This document shows, piece by piece, positions 12,903 to 64,000 of a stretch of 64,000 bases of DNA. The position numbers and the translations under genes are program-made. The notes beneath the pieces are model-generated. The model was not told where the DNA came from. It did no database searches and saw only the letters and a program-made list of their open reading frames with translations. Origin of the DNA: Desulfobulbaceae bacterium DB1 (GTDB lineage Bacteria > Desulfobacterota > Desulfobulbia > Desulfobulbales > SURF-16); contig MQUF01000006.1 of the NCBI GenBank assembly GCA_001914235.1, positions 203,234 through 267,233 of the forward strand, written 5' to 3'. Position 1 is the stretch's first letter. Every line of letters begins with the position of its first letter.

Positions 12903-13009
12903 TGGTTACTCCTGTTTTATAGGGACGTGTCGTATAATTTCAGAACTCCTGATGTCGTAACGTGATTTCGATAAGTTTGTCACAATTTCGGATTCTGGCT
13001 TGTTACCGG

Positions 13010-13125
13010 TTTTAGTGCCTAAAATACTTCAAGTGCGTAACGTGCCGAAAATTAAAGGTGTTATCTGAGCAGAAAATACCGCCACTTCAAGTATTTTAGG
13101 CATTTTAAGTACTTTAGGCACTTTT
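13010..13125. repeat. MITE-like inverted repeat pair plus an extra half copy
   Basis: TTTTAGTGCCTAAAATACTTCAAGT (13010-13034) is inverted against CACTTCAAGTATTTTAGGCA (13083-13102). A related TTTTAAGTACTTTAGGCACTTTT follows (13103-13125). Confidence 0.6.
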
Positions 13126-26020: not shown

Positions 26021-26040
26021 TAACTTGAGACACTTTAAGT

Positions 26041-26065
26041 ACTTGAAGTATTTCAGGCACTAAAA
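26041..26065. repeat. Solo copy of the 13.0-kb repeat arm
   Basis: The reverse complement TTTTAGTGCCTGAAATACTTCAAGT matches 13010-13034 at 24 of 25 positions. It lies between the convergent xdhC-like and dnaE stops. Confidence 0.6.
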
Positions 26066-26084
26066 CTATCGATTCATTTTTCGT

Positions 26085-29000
26085 TCACTGTCGCTTGCCG
26101 CCCCATTTACCGTTTTTCTTGGGGATCAGTTCCGCCTGTTTTTTCATGAAAAGGAGCCCCTTGTAGCCAAGCACGCTTTCCACCTCCCGGGCGAAATCCC
26201 CGCAGGGATTGATGGTGAGTTCTTCCGGGAGGTCGATGTCCGCCTCTCCCCGTTTGTTGAAATGAAGGGTCAGCGACACCGGGCAGGGGCCGTGGTGGCG
26301 GTGGATGGTTTTTTTCAGGTCTTCAAGTATCTTGCGGTTTACCCGATCGGAAATGAGCATGATTTTTGCCGCGGCGGTGAATTTTTTCAGGGCCTCGGAC
26401 AGTGTATCAATGGTGTCCGCCAGGATCTTTGCTCCGCCGCCTTCTTCCTCTTCCTTCTGCAGGACTCCCTGAATAACCAGGGGGGTATCGTCGACCAGCA
26501 CATGACCGAATTCGGCATAGGTCTGGGGGAAGACGATGACCTCAACCGAGCTGGACGTGTCTTCCAGGGTGATAAAGGACATGGGATCCCCTTTTTTGCT
26601 TTTCAGGTTTTTCCGGTTCTTGATCAGGCCGCCGATTCTGACCGCCGAACCGTCACTGCGCTGCATCAGGTCGGCGATCTCGGTATCAATAACCTGGCTG
26701 ATTTCTTTCCTGAAATCATCCAGCGGATGGCCGGTGATGTAAAAACCAACCGTTTCTTTTTCCGCGGCAAGCTTGTCTTTTTCATCCCATTCCGGGATGT
26801 CGGGAAAGGGGATATTGGTCGATTTTTCCTTGGCCTCGGTCGGCATGATGGAAAAAAGGGAAAGCTGTCCGCTTTCCTTGTCCCTCTGGGCGGCCTGGGC
26901 CTGTTCCATGGCCAGGTCAAGAACGGCGAAAAGCTGGGATCGTTTCGCGCCAAGGGAATCAAAGGCCCCTGCCTTGATCAGGCTCTCAATGACCCGGCGG
27001 TTGACCTTGCGGGAGTCGACCCTGGCGCAAAAGTCACCGAGGGATTTGAACGGCCCTTCCTTGCTCCGCTCTTCCATGATGGAATCAAGGGCCGCGCCGC
27101 CGACATTTTTTACCGCCGCAAGGCCGAAACGGATGCGGTCGTTGATGACGGTGAAATCCTGGTTGCTTTCATTGATGTCCGGCGGCAGGACATCGATTTC
27201 GTGTTCCTTGCACTCATTGATGTATTTGACCACCTTGTCGGTGTTGTTGACGTCGCAGGAAAGCAGCGCCGCCATGAACTGGGCCGGGTAATGGGCCTTG
27301 AGATACGCGGTCTGGTAGGAAATAAGGGCATAGGCGGCGCTGTGTGACTTGTTGAAGCCGTAGCCGGCGAACTTGGCCATCAGGTCGAAGATGTACTCGG
27401 CCTTGTCCAGGGGGACCTTGTTTTTCTCCGCCCCTTGCATGAACTTGCCCCGCTGTTCCTCCATCACCGCCGGGATCTTCTTACCCATGGCGCGGCGCAG
27501 GTTGTCTGCATCGCCCAGGGAGTAGGCGGCCAGGACATTGGCAATTTTCATTACCTGCTCCTGATAAACGATGACGCCATAGGTTTCTTTCAGGATCGGT
27601 TCCAGTTGGGGCAGGGGATAGGTGGCCACCATCTTGCCGTGCTTGGTGTTGACGAAGTCATCCACCATGCCGCTTTCGAGCGGTCCCGGCCGGTAGAGGG
27701 CAACCAGGGCGATGAGATCGGTGAACACCTCCGGCTTCATCTTCATCAGCAACTGGCGCATGCCTGAGCTTTCCAGCTGGAACACTCCCAGGGCATCGCC
27801 CTTGCAGAGCAGATCGTACGTTTTCGGATCATCCATGGGGATGGCGGCGATGTCAAGCGGTTCTTCCCGTTCCTCCTTGATCAGCTTCAGGGCGCGATTG
27901 ATAACAGTGAGCGTCTTCAGGCCGAGGAAGTCGAATTTGATGAGACCGGTCATCTCGGTGTACTTCATGTCGTACTGGGTGAGTACCTCGCCTTTCGGTC
28001 CCTTGCACACCGGCAGATATTCCACCATGGGCTCGGGCGAAATCACCACCCCGGCCGCATGGATGGAGGTGTGGCGCTGCAGACCCTCGAGCACCTTGGC
28101 GATGTCGATGAGTTGCCTGACCTGGTCATCGCGCTGATACAGGTCTTTTAAGCGCGGTTCCTGCTCCATTGCCTTTTTGATGGTCATTTTCAGCTCATCC
28201 GGCACCAGCTTGGCGATACGGTCGACATCGCCGAAAGGCATGGCCAGGGCCCGGCCCACATCGCGGATAACGCCCTTGGCCTTCATGGAACCATAGGTGA
28301 TGATCTGGGTGACATGGTCATCACCGCCATATTTTTCATGGACGTATTTGATGACCTCGCCGCGTCGTTCCTGGCAGAAATCAACATCAAAGTCCGGCAT
28401 GGATTTGCGTTCGACATTGAGAAAGCGTTCGAAGATGAGGCCATAAGGAATGGGGTCGATATCGGTGATGCGCATGCAGAAGGCCACCAGGCTGCCGGCG
28501 CCGGAGCCGCGCCCCGGTCCCACCGGGATATCATGGTTTTTGGCCCAGTTGATGAAGTCGGCCACGATGAGAAAATAGCCGGGAAATCCCATGGTCTTGA
28601 TGACGTCGATTTCCATGTCCAGCCGTTTGCGATAGGTTTTTTCAAGCTCCGCCCCGACCTCCTGCCTTTTTCGCAGTTCCCGCATCCTTTCCTTGAATCC
28701 CTGACGGGCGGTCTGGTCAAAGAGGGAATCAAGGGTTTCTCCTTCCGGTACCGGAAAGATGGGGAAATAATGGTTGCCGAAGGGGATTTCCAGATTGCAG
28801 CGGGCGGCCAGGGCCACGGTATTTTCGATGGCCTGCGGGCAATCGGCAAAGCGGCTCTTCATTTCCTGGGGGGATTTGAAAAAGAGTTCATCCGTGCTGA
28901 ACCTGAAGCGGCCGGCATCCATGATGGTCTTGCCCGTCTGGATGCAGAGCAGCAGCTCATGGGCCTTGTGTTCTTCCCGGTTGAGATAGTGGCAGTCATT

Positions 29001-29633
29001 GGTGGCGATCAGCGGGATGGAAAGCTCTCTGGAAAGCTGTTTCAGGCCGTTGTTGGCGATCCGTTGTTCCTCCATGCCGTTTTCCTGCAGCTCGAAATAG
29101 AGCCGGTCGCCGAAAATCGCGTAGAGCTCCCGGGCCTTTTCCCGGGCCAGATCGATATTTTTCTCAGTGGCAATCAGATAGGGAATTTCCCCGTGCAGGC
29201 AGGCGGTCATGGCAATGAGCCCTTCACTGTGGGCAATCATTGATTCTTTGTCGATGCGGGGTTTGTAATGGAAACCCTGGAGCTGGGCGATGGAGGCAAG
29301 TTTCAGCAGATTTTTGTAGCCGACGAGATCCATGGCAAGCAGCACGATGTGAAAGGCTGCCTTGCCCGCACTCTTCGCGCTTTTATCCCCGCGGGAACCA
29401 GGGGCGATGTAGAATTCGCAGCCGATGATCGGTTTGATGCCTGCCTTTCTCGCCTTGACGTAAAATTCCAGGGCACCGTACATGGAGCCGTGATCGGTGA
29501 TGGCCACCGTGTCCATGCCGAATTCCTTGCATTTGGCGAGCAGGTCGTCAAGCCGGATGGCGCCGTCCAGCAGGCTGTACTGGGTATGGACATGGAGGTG
29601 GACGAAGTTGGCGGGAATGGTTTCGCTGGTCAT
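26085..29633 (-). CDS. dnaE: DNA polymerase III alpha subunit
   Basis: PHP N-terminus FVHLHVHTQYSLLDGA with full-length collinear DnaE motifs. ATG 29633 (MTSETIPANF) is preferred. The track ORF extends to 29732 through a 9-nt repeat ladder. Confidence 0.95.
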   Translation of the reverse strand: MTSETIPANFVHLHVHTQYSLLDGAIRLDDLLAKCKEFGMDTVAITDHGSMYGALEFYVKARKAGIKPIIGCEFYIAPGSRGDKSAKSAGKAAFHIVLLAMDLVGYKNLLKLASIAQLQGFHYKPRIDKESMIAHSEGLIAMTACLHGEIPYLIATEKNIDLAREKARELYAIFGDRLYFELQENGMEEQRIANNGLKQLSRELSIPLIATNDCHYLNREEHKAHELLLCIQTGKTIMDAGRFRFSTDELFFKSPQEMKSRFADCPQAIENTVALAARCNLEIPFGNHYFPIFPVPEGETLDSLFDQTARQGFKERMRELRKRQEVGAELEKTYRKRLDMEIDVIKTMGFPGYFLIVADFINWAKNHDIPVGPGRGSGAGSLVAFCMRITDIDPIPYGLIFERFLNVERKSMPDFDVDFCQERRGEVIKYVHEKYGGDDHVTQIITYGSMKAKGVIRDVGRALAMPFGDVDRIAKLVPDELKMTIKKAMEQEPRLKDLYQRDDQVRQLIDIAKVLEGLQRHTSIHAAGVVISPEPMVEYLPVCKGPKGEVLTQYDMKYTEMTGLIKFDFLGLKTLTVINRALKLIKEEREEPLDIAAIPMDDPKTYDLLCKGDALGVFQLESSGMRQLLMKMKPEVFTDLIALVALYRPGPLESGMVDDFVNTKHGKMVATYPLPQLEPILKETYGVIVYQEQVMKIANVLAAYSLGDADNLRRAMGKKIPAVMEEQRGKFMQGAEKNKVPLDKAEYIFDLMAKFAGYGFNKSHSAAYALISYQTAYLKAHYPAQFMAALLSCDVNNTDKVVKYINECKEHEIDVLPPDINESNQDFTVINDRIRFGLAAVKNVGGAALDSIMEERSKEGPFKSLGDFCARVDSRKVNRRVIESLIKAGAFDSLGAKRSQLFAVLDLAMEQAQAAQRDKESGQLSLFSIMPTEAKEKSTNIPFPDIPEWDEKDKLAAEKETVGFYITGHPLDDFRKEISQVIDTEIADLMQRSDGSAVRIGGLIKNRKNLKSKKGDPMSFITLEDTSSSVEVIVFPQTYAEFGHVLVDDTPLVIQGVLQKEEEEGGGAKILADTIDTLSEALKKFTAAAKIMLISDRVNRKILEDLKKTIHRHHGPCPVSLTLHFNKRGEADIDLPEELTINPCGDFAREVESVLGYKGLLFMKKQAELIPKKNGKWGGKRQ

Positions 29634-29840
29634 ATCGGTCTCATTGGTCTTGTTGGTCATTGTGGTCTGACTGGTCTGACTGGTCTGACTGGTCATACTG
29701 GTCATACTGGTCATACTGGTCATACTGGTCATACTGGTCTTACTGGTCTTACTGGTCTAATTGGTCTTATTGGTCTGAGTGGTCTGAGTGGTCTGAGTGG
29801 TCTGATTGGTCAGACTGATGAGACAAGTCAGACCAATCTC
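29625..29840. repeat. Tandem array of ~21-24 nonamers (NNTGGTCNN) ending in an 11/12-bp inverted repeat
   Basis: Units were read directly: ACTGGTCAT x5 (29688-29732), ACTGGTCTG x2, ACTGGTCTT x2, AGTGGTCTG x3, ATTGGTCTT/G and others. The inverted repeat is GATTGGTCAGAC (29804-29815) / GTCAGACCAATC (29827-29838). Confidence 0.9.
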
Positions 29841-46555: not shown

Positions 46556-48229
46556 CCTGAATCCGTGAGGTATCCCGGATTCTCCCTAAAAATTGTGGGG
46601 CGCGAAAAAATTTCAACACCGCGACCGCCAGAAATTTATATATTGCCAGCATATTGCTGGTAAATTGGGACATCGTCCCCGTTGTTCTTTGAAAAATTGC
46701 TATATTTGCCTGTTTTTAGGCGTATTTTCCCGGCAGGGCCTGCTGTTCAGCCACTTTCCGGCAAATTTCTCTTCTGTTCTTGCATTAGCCAAAGGCAAGC
46801 CGGTTATAAACGGCCTGAAACGAGTCAAATGCGCAACAGTGGCGGCTGAACCGCAGCTTCAGTTTCCTGCCGGTCTCAATCAGTCTGGCTGCACGGTACA
46901 TGAGTTCCTGAATAACGGTACGAATTCTCCTGCGCTTTGCCGAGTGGCGCACTGGTGAGCGATCACCGAGAAGGCCAAGCTGGCCGATAAACCGCAAGAT
47001 GTTATAAGCCAAGCCGGCCAAGGACATGATCAAGGAATTGGTCGCAAATTTTCCCGAAGGCAACCGCTCAAGATCCATGTCGGTTTTAAATTCGCTGTGA
47101 AACTGCTCGCTTGTGCCGTGGTCCCGGTAGAGCTTGATGATCTCTTTTTCCGGCAGGTAAAGGGATGTCCACCAGCCCTCAAGTTCTATATCCGGCACCA
47201 GCAGCAACTGGCCGCGTTTGTCAATGGTACGTTCAATCACGCGGACGATCAGGCGGGTACTGAACTCCTTGCCCTCGTGCTCCTGAAGCTGGTTGAAACT
47301 GAATACGGCAACCCGTTTGCCGCGTCGTGGTTCGCTCACTTCTCCTTCTTGCAGCCCACGGGCCAGCCAGGCGGGAAGGTCCTGCTTGCGGGGATTCCAT
47401 TTCAGGATGTAATCGACCTTTTTGTGGCCATAAAGCGTTGCTCGGGTCTCGACAGCATCGTGTCCGGAGTCAAGCCTGAATAACAGTGACTTTTTGGTTA
47501 AAGACTTGGCACGGGAGATGGTTTCCTGCAGAAAAGGAATAAAATTGTTTTGGCTGTGCTGGCTGCCCTCCCGGAACTCAAGATTAATACACCAGCCTTC
47601 CTCTCCCATGTAGGCGGCTATTGGCGCATAGCCGTCATAACCGTGATAGGTATGCTTGGAACCTTCTTTTTTGGTGCCGGAGTTGTCCATGCAAAAGACG
47701 TCCATATCGACGGCGACATGACCCATGGCCAAGGGGGTTACTTTTCCTTTGGCATTGCGGATGAACTCCGTGTAGGTGGAGGAAGCAATTGGCTGAAAAA
47801 CTGTTGCGGTTTCGTCAAGGCGCTGGCGCAAGGTTTCGGGCGAAGGAACCGCTTTGATGCCAAGTGATTGCTGGAAATACCTGTCGTCTTTCATGTCGGC
47901 AATGGCTTCGAAATCGCTTTTGCCAAGCGAGAGGAGCCCGAGATAACTGCGAATGACATCTGTATTGGCAATGTCCTTGGTGTCGGGTATCGCCTTTTTC
48001 AGCTTGGCGTTCAAGCTGGTAAAGCGATTGATACCGAGCCCGATCAGGGCCAGGCCGGAATGAGAGGTATAAAATTCGTCCGATGAGCGTTCAAGAATAA
48101 ATCGTTTCATTTTTTCACCTGCAGAGTGATGTTTTTAGACAGGCGAATATTGCAATATTTTTTGTTAAATTTCAAAATGTTATTTGATTATACAGACGAT
48201 TTTTACTGCAAAAATTTCACGGATTCAGG
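46556..48229 (-). mobile_element. Complete IS1380-family insertion sequence (~1.67 kb)
   Basis: 13-bp perfect terminal inverted repeats: CCTGAATCCGTGA (46556-46568) and TCACGGATTCAGG (48217-48229). Abutting flanks are TTACA (46551-46555) and ATACA (48230-48234). It carries a single transposase ORF. Confidence 0.85.
46785..48110 (-). CDS. IS1380 family transposase
   Basis: 441 aa. MKRFILERSSDEFYTSHSGLALIGL...YHGYDGY matches the recalled IS1380-type architecture. Confidence 0.85.
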   Translation of the reverse strand: MKRFILERSSDEFYTSHSGLALIGLGINRFTSLNAKLKKAIPDTKDIANTDVIRSYLGLLSLGKSDFEAIADMKDDRYFQQSLGIKAVPSPETLRQRLDETATVFQPIASSTYTEFIRNAKGKVTPLAMGHVAVDMDVFCMDNSGTKKEGSKHTYHGYDGYAPIAAYMGEEGWCINLEFREGSQHSQNNFIPFLQETISRAKSLTKKSLLFRLDSGHDAVETRATLYGHKKVDYILKWNPRKQDLPAWLARGLQEGEVSEPRRGKRVAVFSFNQLQEHEGKEFSTRLIVRVIERTIDKRGQLLLVPDIELEGWWTSLYLPEKEIIKLYRDHGTSEQFHSEFKTDMDLERLPSGKFATNSLIMSLAGLAYNILRFIGQLGLLGDRSPVRHSAKRRRIRTVIQELMYRAARLIETGRKLKLRFSRHCCAFDSFQAVYNRLAFG

Positions 48230-49171: not shown

Positions 49172-49999
49172 TCATGCTGCCTTTTCTTGTTGTAACGTTC
49201 CCCAGTATATTTCTTCTGGGAATTTTTTGCCAAGCCCTTGGTGACGCCGCTGTTTGTTATAAAATTCAAAGTAGTTGCGGAGTTCTTTTCTGGCTACCGC
49301 TATCGAGTCGTAGGCCTTGAGGTATACTTCCTCATATTTTACGCTACGCCATAAACGCTCGATGAAAATATTATCCCGCCAGCGGCCACGACCATCCATG
49401 CTGATCCGGATTCCATGGTCCTTGAGTTTGCTGGTAAATGCCTCAGAGGTAAACTGAGACCCCTGGTCAGAGTTGAAAATTTCAGGGCAACCATATCGTT
49501 CGATTGCCTCTTCCAGAGCAGCAAGACAAAACGATGTGTCCAACGTGTTGGACAGTCTCCAGGAAAGAACTTTCCGGCTGGCCCAGTCCATGACTGCTAC
49601 CAGGTACACATAGCCCTTGGATAAAGGAATATAGGTGATATCAGTCGACCATACCTGATTGGCCCGATCAATCGTCAGTCCGTTCAGCAAGTACGGATAT
49701 GTTTTATGGCCGGGATGCGGTTTGGAAAGTCTTGGCTTACGATAGAGTGCCTCAATTCCCATTTTCTTCATGAGGTTGCTGGTCCGGCCACGGCTGACAT
49801 GAAATCCGTTATCCAGCAGTTTGTCACTGATCCGGCGGCTTCCATAGAAAGGATACCGCAGGTGGATTTCGTCAATCAGCGACATGATGTTCAGCTCGTG
49901 CTCACTGCACGGTACTGGTTGGTAATACAGGCTTGATCGAGATAAATCAAGAATCTTGCACTGTCTGGTTACTGGCAAGGCGTGATTCGTAGAGATCAT
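49172..49999 (-). CDS. IS3 family transposase OrfB (rve integrase core)
   Basis: Motifs [37 protein letters not shown] and [14 protein letters not shown]. Confidence 0.9.
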
Positions 50000-51542: not shown

Positions 51543-52377
51543 ACAGAGGTGGCACCGGTTATTAGAATAGGTTAGCGGCTAAAATAAGGTGGAAAGCCGT
51601 CATGTTTAAGCCGCCAATTTGATAACCTGGCCTTTGTAGCCGGGTCGGTCTTTTTGCCAATATGCCCTCATCCAGAGTTCTGTCGTCAAGGTCGGAATTA
51701 GGACGCCGTGTGTTATAAAAATTAATCCAGCGATTGAGGCCTTGTCGTACCTCGCTTCCGGTTTCAAAAGCATGGAGATAAATACATTCGTACTTCAGTG
51801 AGCGCCATAGCCTTTCGATCATAAAATTATCTATCCAGCGTCCTTTACCATCCATGGAGATGCGGATGTCCGCGTCTTTGAGCGCATCGGTAAAATCCTC
51901 GCTGGTAAACTGGTTGCCCTGATCGGTATTGAAAATTTCTGGTTTGCCATAGCGAGCCAGGGCCTCTTCAAGTGCGGCCACGCAGAAATCGGAGTCCATG
52001 GTGTGGGATAACCGCCAGGACAAAACTTTGCGACTGGACCAATTCATAATCGCTACCATATACAGAAAACCCAGCCGCATCGGGACATAGCTAATATCAA
52101 CACACCAGACCTGATTGGCCCTGTTGATCGTCATGCCGCGCAACAAGGTAAGGATAAATCTTGTGCAACGGATGTGGTTTCGGGGTGTTCGGCTTCTGGT
52201 AAATGGCCGAGAGACCCATCTGCCGCATCAGGGGCGTCCGATTCGTTTGCGATTCACCCCATAGCCCGACGACGCAGATGCCGGGACATCTGTCGGGCTC
52301 CGCACCAAAGCGTTTCGAGATACTGCTCGTCGATCAGGTGCATCAATTCCAAGTTCAGGGCAGTTTAGACGAACAGG
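51543..52377 (-). pseudogene. Decayed, 5'-truncated IS3-family copy (orfB remnant with frameshifts, no orfA)
   Basis: The intact part 51562..52146 (NQVWCVDISYVP...FNTDQGNQFTS...IERLWRSLKYE) is related to OrfB at 49172. Upstream, orfB-like sequence (LIDEQYLE..., MRQMGLSAIYQKPNTPKPHP) lies in two other frames. The end sequence AGAGGTGG (51545-51552) matches the intact copy's end. Confidence 0.8.
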
Positions 52378-60450: not shown

Positions 60451-61338
60451 TCAACCAGTCACTCCCATCGGTCCAAAAACAAAATCGTTGAGCAATCTTT
60501 CCAGCCTCTGCCTGGTTTTGTGCAGGTTGTTGTAATGCCGGAATTTCGACAATTTCCCGGCATGGTTGAAGCGGGGCTGGCTCGGATCGATTTCCCAGGG
60601 ATGGAGATAAAAAACAAAGGGCTTGCGCTCGTCGCTATTAATTTTTTTCAGGGCCATTTTCGTAAACCAGTAAGGGAACAGGCGGAAATAGCCGCCGCCG
60701 GCCACAGGAATTTTTCTTCCCAGGAAAAGCGACGTGGAAATAGGATATTCCATCATGTCATGGTTTGGCAATTTATATTCGAAACGGGGGGCGTCCGGAA
60801 TACCGTAGTTGTCATGATAAATGGGAAAGATGCTTGAATCGTATTTGAAGCCGAGTTCCTCCAGAATATCCAAGGCCCAAAGCGATTTTTTTGTTATCGA
60901 ATAACTGGGGGCGCGGTAGCCGACGACCGCCTTGCCTGTTATTTCTTCAAGAATATCCTTGGCCCGCCGGGTGTCTTCCCTGAATTCAGCGGGCGAAAGA
61001 TCATAAATTTTTCTGTGCAGATAGCTGTGGCAGCCTATTTCGTGCCCATGCCGGACAATTTCTTTTACCAGCGCCGGACAGCGTTCGGCAATCCAGCCGA
61101 CAATAAAAAATGTGGCTTTGACATTATGGGCAGCCAGCAGATTTAAAATATTCCCGGTGTTGTTTTCCACCCGCAAATCGCACCCTCCCCATTCTCGGGG
61201 AGAAATTACTTTTTCGAATGCCGCAACCTGAAAATAGTCTTCAACATCAATGGTGAGGTAGTTGGTTGGCTGGTTCAATTTGTTGTTTGGTCTAATTGGT
61301 CTGATTGGTCGGGTTGGTTGGATTGGTTTTCTCCGCAT
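60451..61338 (-). CDS. Polysaccharide deacetylase of the exosortase-locus (DUF3473-containing) type
   Basis: Motifs LTIDVEDYFQV, ATFFIVGW, GCHSYLH, DSSIFP and GGGYFRLFPY. ATG 61338 is the first Met. The N-terminal PIQPTRPIRPIRPNNKLNQPTN is encoded by the nonamer repeat. Confidence 0.85.
   Translation of the reverse strand: MRRKPIQPTRPIRPIRPNNKLNQPTNYLTIDVEDYFQVAAFEKVISPREWGGCDLRVENNTGNILNLLAAHNVKATFFIVGWIAERCPALVKEIVRHGHEIGCHSYLHRKIYDLSPAEFREDTRRAKDILEEITGKAVVGYRAPSYSITKKSLWALDILEELGFKYDSSIFPIYHDNYGIPDAPRFEYKLPNHDMMEYPISTSLFLGRKIPVAGGGYFRLFPYWFTKMALKKINSDERKPFVFYLHPWEIDPSQPRFNHAGKLSKFRHYNNLHKTRQRLERLLNDFVFGPMGVTG
61261..61332. repeat. Second nonamer tandem array (8 units, TTGGTCNNN register)
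   Basis: TTGGTCTAA (61288-61296), TTGGTCTGA, TTGGTCGGG, TTGGTTGGA and TTGGTTTTC, plus degenerate upstream units. Two units are identical or near-identical to units at 29760-29777. Confidence 0.8.
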
Positions 61339-61425
61339 TCCGAAATCCCAAATCCCAAATCCGCTATTGCATGACATCGAACATAACCACACCCTGCGGT
61401 CTCCGATGCCGTATTTGCCTCTTTC

Positions 61426-61779
61426 TCACAAAAACATGCGATAATCAGCACGAAGAGCATCTGCCAGTCTTTTGGCCACCTCTTTGCCGATGGGACGCTT
61501 CCCGTTTTCCATCTCCGAAATATGCCGTTGGGGGATACCTGTCAATTCCGATAATTGCCGTTGTGTAAGGTTTTCCCGGTGTCGATAACCACGCAGCGCA
61601 ATCTGCTGCTCTTTTCCCGCATACTCTGGGAATACTTCGGCGATGGTATAGGTACGCTCTTCCGCCTCGTCGATCGCCTTAGCATACTCTCTCACCTTTG
61701 CCGCATTACTGCGATGAACCCGCACACGAATCGTCACATAGTCTTTATCAATATGGTGCTTTCTCATGGGTTCCGGCAT
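61426..61779 (-). CDS. HTH (XRE-type) antitoxin, HigA-like position downstream of the toxin
   Basis: ATG 61779 has a GGAGG SD inside the toxin 3' end. C-terminal HTH: LTQRQLSELTGIPQRHISEMENGKRPIG. Confidence 0.8.
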   Translation of the reverse strand: MPEPMRKHHIDKDYVTIRVRVHRSNAAKVREYAKAIDEAEERTYTIAEVFPEYAGKEQQIALRGYRHRENLTQRQLSELTGIPQRHISEMENGKRPIGKEVAKRLADALRADYRMFL

Positions 61780-62029
61780 AAACCACCTCCACCAAACAAA
61801 TTTCCCCTTTGCATTCCCGCCATACGGCCACATCATAGGTTGGTTTCCCCTTCTTCAAATGGCAATGATGCTCCGAGTTGGACAATTTGGAGTAATTCGG
61901 CCAGTCTCCGCGTATTGGCCCTCTTGCCTCGATATCACGAACCAACTGAAACAGGATTTCGCGCACCTTGACGGGCAGCTTCTCCTTCTGCTTCCGCGCC
62001 CTTCAGGTGAATTCTACTACCCACTTCAC
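61748..62029 (-). pseudogene. RelE/YafQ-like toxin interrupted by an in-frame TGA at codon 9
   Basis: From GTG 62029: VKWVVEFT-TGA(62005-62003)-RARKQKEKLPVKVREILFQLVRDIE...HHCHLKKGKPTYDVAVWRE..GEICLVEVVYAGTHEKAPY. The N-terminus before the stop matches the usual toxin start (MKWxVEFT..A.KQL.KLP). Confidence 0.6.
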
Positions 62030-62046
62030 AATATATACCAATTATT

Positions 62047-62090
62047 AGATTTCTGTTGGGTTGCGCTGCGCTTAACCCAACCTACAAACT
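62047..62090. repeat. REP-like GTAG hairpin repeat, copy R1
   Basis: AGATTTCTGTTGGGTTGCGCTGCGCTTAACCCAACCTACAAACT. The stem is GTTGGGTT/AACCCAAC. The minus strand reads GTAGGTTGGGTTAAGCGCAGCGCAACCCAAC. Confidence 0.85.
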
Positions 62091-62119
62091 TGCCTTGACG
62101 ATGCGGAAGGTCTCTTCGT

Positions 62120-62205
62120 AGATGGTTTTGCGCGGGCCGAGGGCCACCCCCTCGATGATTCCCTTAGCGGAAATGCGGTAAACAATCCGCATGTTCTTGA
62201 CCCGC
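62120..62205 (-). pseudogene. 3' fragment of a second RelE/ParE-type toxin gene (copy A)
   Basis: The minus-strand frame reads NLRVKNMRIVYRISAKGIIEGVALGPRKTIYEE..., the C-terminal RelE/ParE pattern. It has no start codon and is bounded by R2 and R1. Confidence 0.6.
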
Positions 62206-62249
62206 AGATTTCTGTTGGGTTGCGCTGCGCTTAACCCAACCTACAAACT
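62206..62249. repeat. REP-like GTAG hairpin repeat, copy R2
   Basis: Identical 44-mer to R1, lying 159 nt from it. Confidence 0.85.
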
Positions 62250-62308
62250 CTCCACCGCATGAATAAGCGCTTAATTCTTTCTTCCAGCTTATACGGGCAT
62301 TTCTTCGT

Positions 62309-63718
62309 TTACTGCCGATCCCGCACCAGCTTCCAGGCATCAAACTCGGACAACTTCAGCCGATACATGGCCACATTGCCCTCATGCAAGCGCTGCAAGG
62401 CATCCTGCACCATCTTGGCAAACATGGCGGAGTCACTGCCCGGCACCAACTGATCGGCCAGTTGGTGAACATTCTGAGCGGAAGGCTCCTTACTTTCTCG
62501 AACAATAGACTGCACGGCATCGATCAAGGTCTCCCGGTAGCGGATGCGTAAAGGATCAGGCTCAGCCATGGTCTGGGTGATGGCGAGATAGCGCTGACAG
62601 GAACGCTCATAAGCCCAAACAAAGACATCGCGCAACAGGTCAACCTGGTTGAGCTCATAGACGCCTAAAGTGCCGTCCACATATGCCTGTTCCGGCACAT
62701 CGACGAAAGACAGCGGACAGAGGTTGTGGCGAAAGAGCGGAATGTTGGCCCCCAAGCGGGAGACCCGCTTGTTGACATCCTCGAATGGCTGGAGATACGG
62801 CAACTGGACCATCACGAAAAAGGCTTGCTCAAAGGGGTCGGGGATGGCAGCACCCTTCGCGAGCAGCAAACGGAAGCAGTCCTCCAGAACTTGGGGCATG
62901 GCCAACGGGTGGAAGACCGAGCCCGCGATGTCTACCGGCCGGCGACGTAAGCGCCCGCAGGCGTCTTCATCGTGGAGCAGGTTTTCCGACAACAGGGCGT
63001 GCAGGTTGAGGAAGGTGAAGGGATTGAACCCAACCTGATCGACCTCTTCGATAAGCATTTCGATGGCTGCCTTGTGATTCAGGATCATCTGGGTTTCCTG
63101 AATATCCTTGCCTGCCGCCGCCTGTCCAAACTCGATCAGATTTTTGGTATCGAGACGGCTGTAAGTGTTGCCCTCCAACCTGGACGAGGCCCAGGAGAGA
63201 TCAACCAGTAAACGATTCAGGAGTTCCCGGGCATAGGTTCCTGCCGGCCGTTGGTCAGGCGAGGTACTGCCCATGGCATGGAGGTCGGCCCGCAGTGACT
63301 CGGGGAGATAGAAGGTAACGCCTGGCTCGTAGTCCTCAAGGAACGTCCGCTGATACCCGACAGGCTGCCGTTGCATCAGGGGACGCCGGATGAGATCGCA
63401 AATGATGCCGCCTTCTCGCGAAACCGGGATATATGGTTCAGTCTCGACACGACCTGCCCCTTTTGCCGTGCGGTCTCGTCTGCCGCGCAATTCGTTTGGG
63501 GCGCGCTTGTAAACCAGAGCGATGCTTTCGCCTTCGGTCGTGATGCGTGCATCCACCATGAGGCGTTCCAGGCGGCGCTGCAAGGTACGACGGTTGAGCA
63601 TTTTCGGCAGGCGGCGGTGGAGGGCCTCTTCCAGGGCTGAGATGCCGATACCCTCGGGATGCTCTGAAATTACCCGTTCGATCAGCTCTAATTCTTCAGC
63701 AGGCACACTACGCGACAT
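62309..63718 (-). CDS. Fic/Doc family protein with an N-terminal winged helix and a non-canonical active-site motif
   Basis: ATG 63718 (MSRSVPAEELELIERV...). The Fic-core region is AFFVMVQLPYLQPFEDVNKRVSRLGANIPL. Confidence 0.8.
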   Translation of the reverse strand: MSRSVPAEELELIERVISEHPEGIGISALEEALHRRLPKMLNRRTLQRRLERLMVDARITTEGESIALVYKRAPNELRGRRDRTAKGAGRVETEPYIPVSREGGIICDLIRRPLMQRQPVGYQRTFLEDYEPGVTFYLPESLRADLHAMGSTSPDQRPAGTYARELLNRLLVDLSWASSRLEGNTYSRLDTKNLIEFGQAAAGKDIQETQMILNHKAAIEMLIEEVDQVGFNPFTFLNLHALLSENLLHDEDACGRLRRRPVDIAGSVFHPLAMPQVLEDCFRLLLAKGAAIPDPFEQAFFVMVQLPYLQPFEDVNKRVSRLGANIPLFRHNLCPLSFVDVPEQAYVDGTLGVYELNQVDLLRDVFVWAYERSCQRYLAITQTMAEPDPLRIRYRETLIDAVQSIVRESKEPSAQNVHQLADQLVPGSDSAMFAKMVQDALQRLHEGNVAMYRLKLSEFDAWKLVRDRQ

Positions 63719-63852
63719 GAAAGTTCCCCTTGATGGCTTCGTTGCATGGTTTCCCCCGGCCGGCAACGGCAGGAACGACACAAAAGAGTGACATCATAAT
63801 GGCATACGTTAATGTCGCGCGTCAACAATAATTTGAATAACCATATCGCTCA

Positions 63853-63896
63853 AGATTTCTGTTGGGTTGCGCTGCGCTTAACCCAACCTGCAAACT
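63853..63896. repeat. REP-like hairpin repeat, copy R3 (one substitution: GCAG instead of GTAG)
   Basis: AGATTTCTGTTGGGTTGCGCTGCGCTTAACCCAACCTGCAAACT. Confidence 0.85.
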
Positions 63897-63902
63897 CTTC
63901 AC

Positions 63903-63988
63903 AGATGGTTTTGCGCAGGCCGGGAGCCACCACCTCGATGATTCCCTTGGCGGAAATGCGGTAAACAATCCGCATGTTCTTGACCCGC
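63903..63988 (-). pseudogene. 3' fragment of the RelE/ParE-type toxin gene (copy B)
   Basis: Same 86 nt as 62120-62205 with 5 mismatches by eye. It reads ..LRVKNMRIVYRISAKGIIEVVAPGLRKTI.. Confidence 0.6.
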
Positions 63989-64000
63989 AGATTTCTGTTG
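63989..64000. repeat. REP-like hairpin repeat, copy R4 (cut by the window edge)
   Basis: AGATTTCTGTTG is the first 12 nt of the 44-mer. Confidence 0.7.

Follow-up and report, generated by a model that had tools for sequence, protein, structure and literature searches.

At the end of the stretch analysed here (the window, 64,000 nt from a Desulfobulbaceae bacterium DB1 MAG), copies of a short hairpin repeat (R) and of a toxin-gene remnant (X) lie on both sides of a Fic unit and next to a degraded HigBA-like toxin–antitoxin pair, followed by EPS genes (Table 1). The Fic gene product is a 469-aa protein with a Pfam Fic domain, and GC content is 0.54–0.58 in the Fic unit versus about 0.43 in the adjoining EPS genes. 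Proteins OKY75634–OKY75638 mark the locus. Codon 9 of the HigB-like pseudogene is GGA in the strain contig L126, and profile comparison gave no family match for this pseudogene. A preliminary description of this DNA had proposed a search for a RAYT or recombinase beside the array; the 64-kb window contains no RAYT gene by tblastn, and over the 12 kb of the readable downstream side the genes encode neither an integrase nor a recombinase domain.

Table 1. Features of the array and its neighbouring genes, by position in the window
Feature	Position	Strand	Description
Antitoxin gene	61426–61779	−	HTH_3 (Xre/HigA-like), 117 aa
HigB-like toxin pseudogene	61748–62029	−	Begins 17 nt past R1; in-frame TGA at codon 9
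R1	62047–62088	−	TTTGTAG, hairpin 62055–62081 and tail AGAAATCT; its TAG closes the X4 reading frame
23-nt piece, copy A only	62089–62111	−	Toxin-gene 3′ sequence (ACCTTCCGCATCGTCAAGGCAAG)
X4	62112–62206	−	In-place relic, 3′ end of RelE/ParE-like toxin gene (RVKNMRIVYRISAKGIIEGVALGPRKTIYEE)
R2	62207–62247	−	Directly after the Fic 3′ flank; tail AGAAATC adjoins X4
Fic unit	62248–63852	−	Promoter-like site 63796–63825; Fic gene 62309–63718; 64-nt 3′ flank
R3	63853–63894	−	GCAG replaces GTAG; joined to the Fic upstream flank
X3	63895–63989	−	Toxin-remnant copy of a diverged allele; 7 differences from X4, 1–2 from X1/X2
R4	63990–64000	−	Window-edge fragment: tail and hairpin start; remainder past the window, read from L121
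X2, chimeric REP, X1, REP-A, toxin 5′ part	64001–64335		Past the window, read from L121

The R hairpin and the X remnant

On the minus strand, R is a 42-nt unit, TTTGTAG-GTTGGGTT-AAGCGCAGCGC-AACCCAAC-AGAAATCT, containing a 27-nt hairpin with an 8-bp stem of perfect arms and an 11-nt loop. The preliminary description had reported a 44-nt repeat at 62047, 62206, 63853 and 63989; the four copies are real, but the unit is 42 nt long and two of them start at 62207 and 63990. The 27-nt core occurs exactly at 62055, 62214 and 63861, with 0 expected (100 shuffles), and no further copy of it, or of any GTTGGGTT..AACCCAAC hairpin, was found across the 64 kb. Computed folding of the hairpin as DNA gave about −9.5 kcal/mol (z −2.8 to −3.7). 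As in GTAG-type REPs, a GTAG foot precedes GTTGGGTT..AACCCAAC in R1, R2 and R4, while R3 has GCAG. All copies in the window are direct (head-to-tail) singlets, not the inverted doublets of REPINs, and the spacing from R2 to R1 is exactly 159 nt, as first reported. An Rfam scan of positions 61000–64000 with E up to 1 matched nothing. A terminator role for the hairpin was rejected, since no T-run lies 3′ of it and no terminator was flagged.

X measures 95 nt, with 7 mismatches between the two window copies over its full length; the 86 nt and 5 mismatches given previously describe a sub-stretch of a genuine repeat. Its earlier assignment to the C-terminus of a RelE/ParE toxin agrees with a match to Pfam ParE_toxin (profile positions 58–89 of 89), which is statistically weak (E 0.18). 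The X peptide had no match away from this locus among 5.8 billion proteins, and a search for the full-length parent toxin recovered just the two local fragments. The copy formed by X3 and R3 lacks the 23 nt at 62089–62111, confirming the reported difference between copies.

A strain contig, L127 (run ERR3839026), that begins 11 nt inside X carries the same gene end. Its positions 1–91 equal the last 84 nt of X4 plus the first 7 nt of the 23-nt piece, without a mismatch over 91 nt. The 23-nt piece agrees with L127 through ACCTTCC and diverges beyond, where L127 has a TGA stop, a REP-free spacer of 146 nt and then the same TAATAATTGG...HigBA sequence. Relative to L127, R1 substitutes for about 29 nt and is not a clean insertion. 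This alignment shows X4 to be a relic, still in place, of a RelE/ParE-like toxin gene from which the 3′ end survives; in the related strain L127 that gene end is complete and free of REPs. The R-X-R boundary module envisaged in the preliminary description thus falls away, X4 being a resident toxin remnant.

The array beyond the window and in related strains

The metagenome contig L121 matches the window without a difference over 11,692 nt. In it the array continues past position 64000, as had been expected, with the full R4 hairpin visible there. Its order is toxin 5′ part, REP-A, X1, chimeric REP, X2, R4, X3, R3, Fic, R2, X4, R1, degraded HigBA-like pair and EPS genes. TRF reported a period of 136 nt with 3.0 copies and 93% matches, a copy number that may be inexact given the short-read assembly and a JGI contig that ends within the array. 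These data show that X1–X3 arose by recent tandem amplification in units of 136 nt. The left junctions of the X units differ (CTAC, CTAC+CTGC and AGAAATC). Protein look-ups (P0001 and a 136-aa antitoxin form) returned nothing extending the locus past 64335.

X1–X3 differ from one another at 1–2 sites and from X4 at 6–7 sites, 3 of them non-synonymous; they are nearly identical copies of a diverged toxin-remnant allele. The TAG of R, previously described as in frame with X throughout, is in frame for X4-R1 and for X1 outside the window, and is out of frame for X3-R3 (GCAG) and X2-R4. A coding function for X was rejected because three of the six substitutions fixed between the two X alleles are non-synonymous and the reading frame from X into R is not kept.

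A second REP variant, REP-A, with the loop TCACTTTGTTC, is also present in the array. L121 positions 174–210 read GTAG, GTTGGGTT, the REP-A loop, AACCCAAC and CTAC, showing that this hairpin is chimeric, with its left part from R and its right part from REP-A, joined within the 8-nt stem.

The strain comparison proposed earlier revealed a locus that is not static. At the Fic 3′ junction, GGAGAGATAAAG is joined to AAATCTGAAAGAT-REP-A in L128 and to TTTGTAG-R in L129, and GGAGAG is joined to TTTGTAG-R in both L130 and the window, demonstrating that this junction differs between strains. The junction between R3 and the Fic upstream flank recurs in three other datasets. In L128, an R tail is fused to a REP-A tail (AGAAATCTGAAAGAT), which could be the remnant of a doublet. 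Together, the in-stem chimera and the strain-variable Fic 3′ junction indicate REP-to-REP recombination.

The hairpin in other genomes and in known systems

Among the matches listed, from which the source genome is absent, the exact 27-mer occurs at at least 120 places in GTDB genomes, mostly Nostocales, and genomes such as that of Anabaena sp. CCY 0017 each hold dozens of loci. GTAG or CTAC stands at one foot of 199 of the 214 hairpins at the GTDB loci, and 68 inverted doublets have GTAG outside. At three cyanobacterial loci (L050, L117 and L046), doublets lie on both flanks of a 180-aa gene; the L050 protein matched NCBIfam NF047646 REP_Tyr_transpos with 213.8 bits (E 9e-64), and tblastn identity to it was 81% for L117 and 73% for L046. 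These results show that R is a GTAG-tagged REP whose family members flank RAYT genes, in agreement with its first classification.

The same 27-nt hairpin is common to Nostocales, Desulfobacterota, Nitrospirota, the isolate Pseudomonas sp. GV071 and further MAGs, and viral contigs gave two matches. Mapping R in other genomes revealed a dispersed intergenic repeat with no link to X or to accessory genes, contrary to the association assumed at first. In DB1, all R copies within the 64 kb form one cluster, unlike a typical high-copy REP. Doublets reiterated together with flanking DNA were found in L086 (period 146, 3 copies) and L113 (period 142, 2 copies). A metagenome scan with GTAG, R and tail gave 0 matches in a collection that evidently lacks this sample, and a scan for the R-tail doublet gave one chance terminator hairpin on a contig of 62% GC. 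A literature search by hairpin sequence returned chance primer matches only, and the sequence is absent from the supplements of PMC3733652.

GTAG-tagged REP families and REP clusters have been described by Di Nocera, De Gregorio and Rocco (2013, PMC3733652), and REP/REPIN-RAYT systems by Bertels and Rainey (2011, PMC3116915). In the former, GTAG REPs share with R the short palindrome, the GTAG foot and the provision of a TAG stop to the upstream ORF, and REP clusters, as here, are tandem units reiterated along with flanking DNA, so that such reiteration is already in the literature. The 8-bp stem and 11-nt loop fit cyanobacterial GTAG-15, compared by its description in that text only (PMC3733652). 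Duplication junctions with short homology are known to contain REP sequences (PMC1428787), and in the present array REPs are likewise join points through short homology. Unlike the GTAG REP families, which resemble R also in placing the identical hairpin as inverted doublets around RAYT genes in other genomes, the host here is a Desulfobulbaceae MAG, and the copies are head-to-tail singlets confined to a single cluster within the 64 kb, with no RAYT in the window. Known REP clusters differ further: in this array, what is reiterated beside the REPs is the remnant of a toxin gene, and two of its copies enclose an entire Fic unit. BIME linkers are dedicated motifs of 1–30 nt, and BIME REPs alternate in orientation. 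The array resembles E. coli BIME-2 clusters in being a tandem REP array with constant linker motifs, but its linker is a 95-nt gene relic and its REPs all point in the same direction.

Like integron arrays, the locus has co-oriented hairpin-forming sites between accessory genes, a toxin–antitoxin pair included, and the R stem contains GTTGGGT and ACCCAAC, which match the attC core consensus GTTRRRY and RYYYAAC. In attC, however, RYYYAAC (R″) is 5′ and GTTRRRY (R′) 3′ in an imperfect palindrome of 57–141 nt with extrahelical bases, whereas R has GTTGGGT before ACCCAAC on both strands and is 27 nt long, with perfect 8-bp arms and no extrahelical bases. Moreover, the genes here occupy the place of X and do not lie between attC-like halves as in integrons, and the stretch AACCCAAC-X-GTTGGGTT does not fold into one hairpin. 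No intI, attI or Pc was found in a gene survey covering 12 kb on the downstream side. An attC identity was rejected on motif order and size. A CRISPR array was rejected because the "spacers" are either whole genes or repeats of a single sequence, at irregular spacings of 136, 159 and 1647 nt; no cas genes were found in the 12 kb read. Xer/dif sites have an 11-6-11 geometry, and a module of this kind was rejected, as the 8-11-8 geometry of R would not fit it.

Origin of the array

We consider it likely that REPs invaded a decaying toxin locus and copied its remnant around Fic by mutual recombination, giving a REP cluster of a known kind. The invaders would have been at least two REP variants, R and REP-A, entering both a RelE/ParE-like toxin gene and the 3′ flank of that gene, next to a second degraded HigBA-like pair at the edge of an EPS gene cluster. 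With the toxin remnant flanked by direct REP copies, REP exchange or template switching at the 8-nt stem they share, or at the 42-nt unit, may have reiterated X together with a REP, and the same exchange may have put such copies on either side of a horizontally acquired Fic unit. Deletion between two identical stems would have collapsed doublets into single hairpins. We infer this order of events from the arrangement of the copies, and any role of the hairpins for Fic or for the toxin–antitoxin pair would be speculative. The REP-mediated duplication and shuffling offered as one reading in the preliminary description is supported by the RAYT-flanking hairpins, the in-stem chimera and the variable Fic 3′ junction.

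The other reading offered there, an undescribed site-specific cassette system, would make R the recombination site for a RAYT or recombinase encoded outside the window, with circular gene units shuffled as in integrons; we regard it as very unlikely. Although Fic has its own promoter and clean R edges on both sides, and every unit is co-oriented, Fic is the one true gene unit bracketed; what would be the other "cassettes" is a single pseudogene fragment in several copies, and the toxin–antitoxin pair has R on a single side. The chimeric hairpin shows exchange within the stem, and the REP at the Fic 3′ junction varies by strain in a region GC-richer than its surroundings, yet R3-Fic-R2 is one and the same locus in four of four datasets, which fits vertical descent, and the nearest Fic homologues elsewhere (83–89% identity) have no R hairpins. 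The dispersed intergenic distribution of R in other genomes, the attC motif order and the absence of a RAYT from the window and of a recombinase from the 12 kb on the known side also speak against it. That a RAYT encoded elsewhere in the genome catalyses REP-to-REP exchange as a low-grade site-specific capture is similarly improbable. If true, any segment with R at both ends would be cut out, multiplied or moved to another R copy, and REPs would take the place of attC sites in what would amount to a primitive cassette platform.

It is extremely unlikely that R-X-R is a non-autonomous palindrome-associated element of the IS200/IS605 type that transposes as a unit beside accessory genes. Two direct-orientation hairpins around a short non-coding body do recall IS200/IS605 ends, and RAYTs are members of the same HUH Y1 superfamily (see also PMC6006769). 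X4, however, runs on into native downstream sequence in L127 and is therefore not an insertion. Furthermore, the X copies are contiguous in a single array rather than dispersed, their left junctions are unlike one another, and the protein search gave no sign of X at unrelated loci. Alternatively, short-read assembly over the 136-nt tandem repeat might have produced the whole repeat structure, or at any rate the number of copies, as an artefact, since the JGI contig starts within the array and Logan contigs end inside R hairpins. We think this very unlikely: the copies differ by SNPs, hairpin type and the 23-nt indel and are therefore distinct sequences, and the junctions R3-Fic and Fic-R2 were seen again in three independent sequencing runs.

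Recombination among invading REPs thus remains our preferred explanation, under which the apparent new cassette system is an already described kind of REP cluster, and a false lead is removed. The sharing of one hairpin across Nostocales, Desulfobacterota and other groups bears on the question of strictly vertical inheritance of REP-RAYT systems. With its in-stem chimera, possible doublet remnant and strain-specific junctions, the array is a readable record of the remodelling of a locus by REPs and gives direct sequence evidence of REP-to-REP exchange.

Sequence and family of repeat R

On the minus strand, R reads TTTGTAG-GTTGGGTT-AAGCGCAGCGC-AACCCAAC-AGAAATCT. The hairpin repeat reported in the preliminary description proved to be real: R1, R2, R3 and part of R4 lie in the window (see table), and the 27-nt hairpin core was found in three exact copies compared with none in 100 shuffles. 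No further GTTGGGTT..AACCCAAC hairpins were present in the 64-kb window beyond the R copies. Folding of R as single-stranded DNA gave an 8-bp stem followed by an AA bulge and a 3-bp stem capped by a triloop (about -9.5 kcal/mol). The TAG of every R had been described as in frame with X; because the TAG of GTAG ends the X frame in some copies only, this relation is not conserved.

We searched the GTDB species representatives for exact matches to the 27-mer and found it at no fewer than 120 places, a total that is a lower bound. Nostocales accounted for the majority of the listed matches, and dozens lay in the genome of Anabaena sp. CCY 0017; the other listed hosts were Nitrospirota, Desulfobacterota, a gammaproteobacterial MAG, Pseudomonas sp. 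GV071 and a Christensenellaceae MAG. The listed loci contained 214 hairpins with the R stem, 101 with only a 5' GTAG foot and 98 with only a 3' CTAC foot, and these hairpins formed 68 inverted doublets with GTAG outside. Such doublets, the exact R hairpin included, enclose a 180-aa gene from both sides at three loci: L050 (Nostoc minutum), L117 and L046. The L050 protein matched NCBIfam NF047646, "REP-associated tyrosine transposase" (213.8 bits, E 9e-64), and the L117 and L046 proteins were 81% and 73% identical to it. Since the same hairpin with GTAG feet, in doublets, flanks RAYT genes elsewhere, R is a GTAG-type REP of a RAYT-associated family, as had been proposed. GTAG REPs have been described in cyanobacteria, one family with 9-15-nt loops (Di Nocera et al., PMC3733652). 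The expected RAYT or recombinase near the array was not found: tblastn detected no RAYT homologue in the 64-kb window, and the 12 kb annotated downstream of the array contained no recombinase domain.

The occurrence of an identical 27-mer in Nostocales, Nitrospirota, Desulfobacterota, Pseudomonas and other MAGs suggests either that a REP-RAYT system has spread horizontally or that the hairpin is strongly constrained. The identity extends to the loop, with examples in Pseudomonas sp. GV071 (L110, 4536-4562), Nitrospirota (L047, 4476-4502) and Syntrophobacteraceae (L080, 126-152). The hairpin adjoins ParE/RelE-type toxin-antitoxin pairs in L047 and L080, and in L099 a gene whose N-terminus resembles, by eye, an IS110-family transposase.

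Order of the locus and origin of fragment X

The window belongs to the MAG Desulfobulbaceae bacterium DB1, in which the Fic protein (OKY75638.1) is encoded on a 397-kb contig. Over 11,692 nt, the window and the JGI contig L121 do not differ in sequence; L121 extends 335 nt beyond 64000, where further X/REP units confirmed that the array continues. In gene orientation, the locus read from L121 begins with the 5' part of a toxin gene (...KSGNPVGMEF), followed by REP-A (TGAAAGAT-GTTGGGTT-TCACTTTGTTC-AACCCAAC-CTAC), X1, a hairpin that carries the REP-A loop between a left-hand GTAG and a right-hand CTAC, and X2. Then come R4, X3, R3, the Fic unit, R2, X4, R1, a HigB-like pseudogene, an HTH_3 antitoxin, and genes for a polysaccharide deacetylase, EpsI, an exosortase and glycosyltransferases. 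Tandem Repeats Finder gave the X+REP units a period of 136, with 3.0 copies and 93% matches. The reverse complement of the REP-A loop is a variant that occurs beside the L117 RAYT gene.

Coordinates of array features and transposase genes in the window
Feature	Position	Strand	Remarks
R1	62047-62088	-	repeat unit
R2	62207-62247	-	repeat unit
R3	63853-63894	-	GCAG in place of GTAG
R4	window edge	-	first 11 nt of fourth copy inside window
X4	62112-62206	-	95 nt
X3	63895-63989	-	95 nt; 7 differences from X4
HigB-like gene	61748-62029	-	
IS3-/IS4-type transposase genes (46.8-52.1 kb)	46788-48110, 49175-49999, 51565-52146	-	DDE_Tnp_1_4 / rve

The shared piece X was confirmed, but not at the reported 86 nt with five mismatches (see table); the 23-nt difference between copies also held, the additional nucleotides lying at 62089-62111 in copy A. 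The X peptide gave a weak match (E 0.18) to Pfam ParE_toxin, covering the final 32 positions of the profile, and no relatives outside this locus were found among 5.8 billion proteins. The related-strain contig L127 (run ERR3839026) shares the HigB-like pseudogene with the window, and its antitoxin is identical to the one there. On the upstream side of these genes, a 91-nt match to the window with 0 mismatches starts 11 nt into X and ends at ACCTTCC; L127 then runs on to a TGA stop (...TIYEETFHIISESS*) and a 146-nt REP-free spacer before rejoining the window at CTAATAATTGG. Because L127, the decisive comparison, keeps a continuous, REP-free gene end in the same place, X4 is the 3' end of a toxin gene still in its original position, and R1 is a later arrival that cost the site about 100 nt. 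The assignment of X to a toxin-gene end stands, its RelE/ParE affiliation is tentative, and X4 is not part of a boundary module. X1-X3 differ from one another at 1-2 positions and are set apart from X4 by six common differences, including three non-synonymous ones; they are a diverged allele that was recently amplified in place, free of coding constraint. Codon 9 of the HigB-like gene is changed from GGA to TGA in the window and L127; the gene is intact in L126 (93 aa) and matched no Pfam or NCBIfam family. The whole toxin-antitoxin region is decaying.

GC is 0.51-0.58 from 61.5 kb onward versus about 0.39-0.47 in the EPS genes, among which sit one DDE_Tnp_1_4 transposase gene and two of IS3 type (rve), the second of these being truncated. 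The EPS genes after the same toxin-antitoxin pair differ between L126 and L127, and the EPS region looks mosaic as a whole. About 25 tandem copies of the 9-nt unit TGGTCTNAN (29609-29837) overlap the 5' end of a 1215-aa ORF (26085-29732, minus strand), and the polysaccharide deacetylase ORF has a 4-copy form at its 5' end (61270-61336); the repeat may serve as a variable N-terminal stretch of the protein or as a tract for phase variation. GACCAATAA occurs three times in the L127 spacer (110-175). A 46-nt inverted repeat pair (13009-13054 / 26021-26066, 83% complementary) encloses about 13 kb, possibly a mobile or invertible segment with these repeats as its ends.

The Fic unit and formation of the array

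The Fic gene carries its own promoter-like site. Homologues with 70-89% identity are abundant, those with a source name mostly in Desulfobacterota MAGs. The closest outside the lineage (L123, 89%; L124, 87%; L125, 83%) have the promoter and about 50 nt of the 3' flank in common with the Fic unit here but carry no hairpins. Positions 1-60 of L123, directly upstream of the Fic gene, resemble by eye a tRNA gene 3' end, a position typical of a genomic island.

The proposal of an undescribed site-specific cassette system is not supported, since R, in the sequence read up to 64335, brackets a single real gene unit (Fic), whose nearest homologues are hairpin-free, and the remaining "cassettes" are copies of one pseudogene piece. 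Integron attC was rejected, as its core motifs run in the opposite order to those of R, whose hairpin is shorter and more perfectly paired than such a site would be. Readings as a CRISPR, a terminator or an IS200/IS605-type element failed their defining tests.

The alternative proposal, REP-mediated duplication and shuffling, gained support from a stem chimera and, on strain comparison, strain-specific Fic 3' junctions. In the hairpin at L121 174-210 the left flank is R-type (TTGTAG) and the loop and CTAC foot are those of REP-A, with the exchange point within the shared GTTGGGTT stem. At the Fic 3' junction, ...GGAGAGATAAAG meets TTTGTAG-R in L129, and ...GGAGAG meets TTTGTAG-R in the window and L130; in L128, ...GGAGAGATAAAG meets AAATCTGAAAGAT-REP-A, an R tail fused to a REP-A tail without the R hairpin. 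The R3-Fic junction is alike in all four datasets. Doublets of the R family are also repeated together with the DNA beside them, three times in L086 (period 146) and twice in L113 (period 142), and REP sequences are documented duplication join points with short homology (PMC1428787).

R and REP-A may be two halves of one doublet, GTAG-R-AGAAATCTGAAAGAT-REP-A-CTAC. Exchange between direct REP copies, or template switching from one to another, would have duplicated X+REP units, and doublets would have collapsed through deletion between identical stems; two exchanges between REP copies could place X+REP on each side of Fic. That RAYT-driven REP-to-REP exchange acts as a capture platform is very improbable. 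The structure is a REP cluster with reiterated flanking DNA, of a known kind, in a new host and locus.
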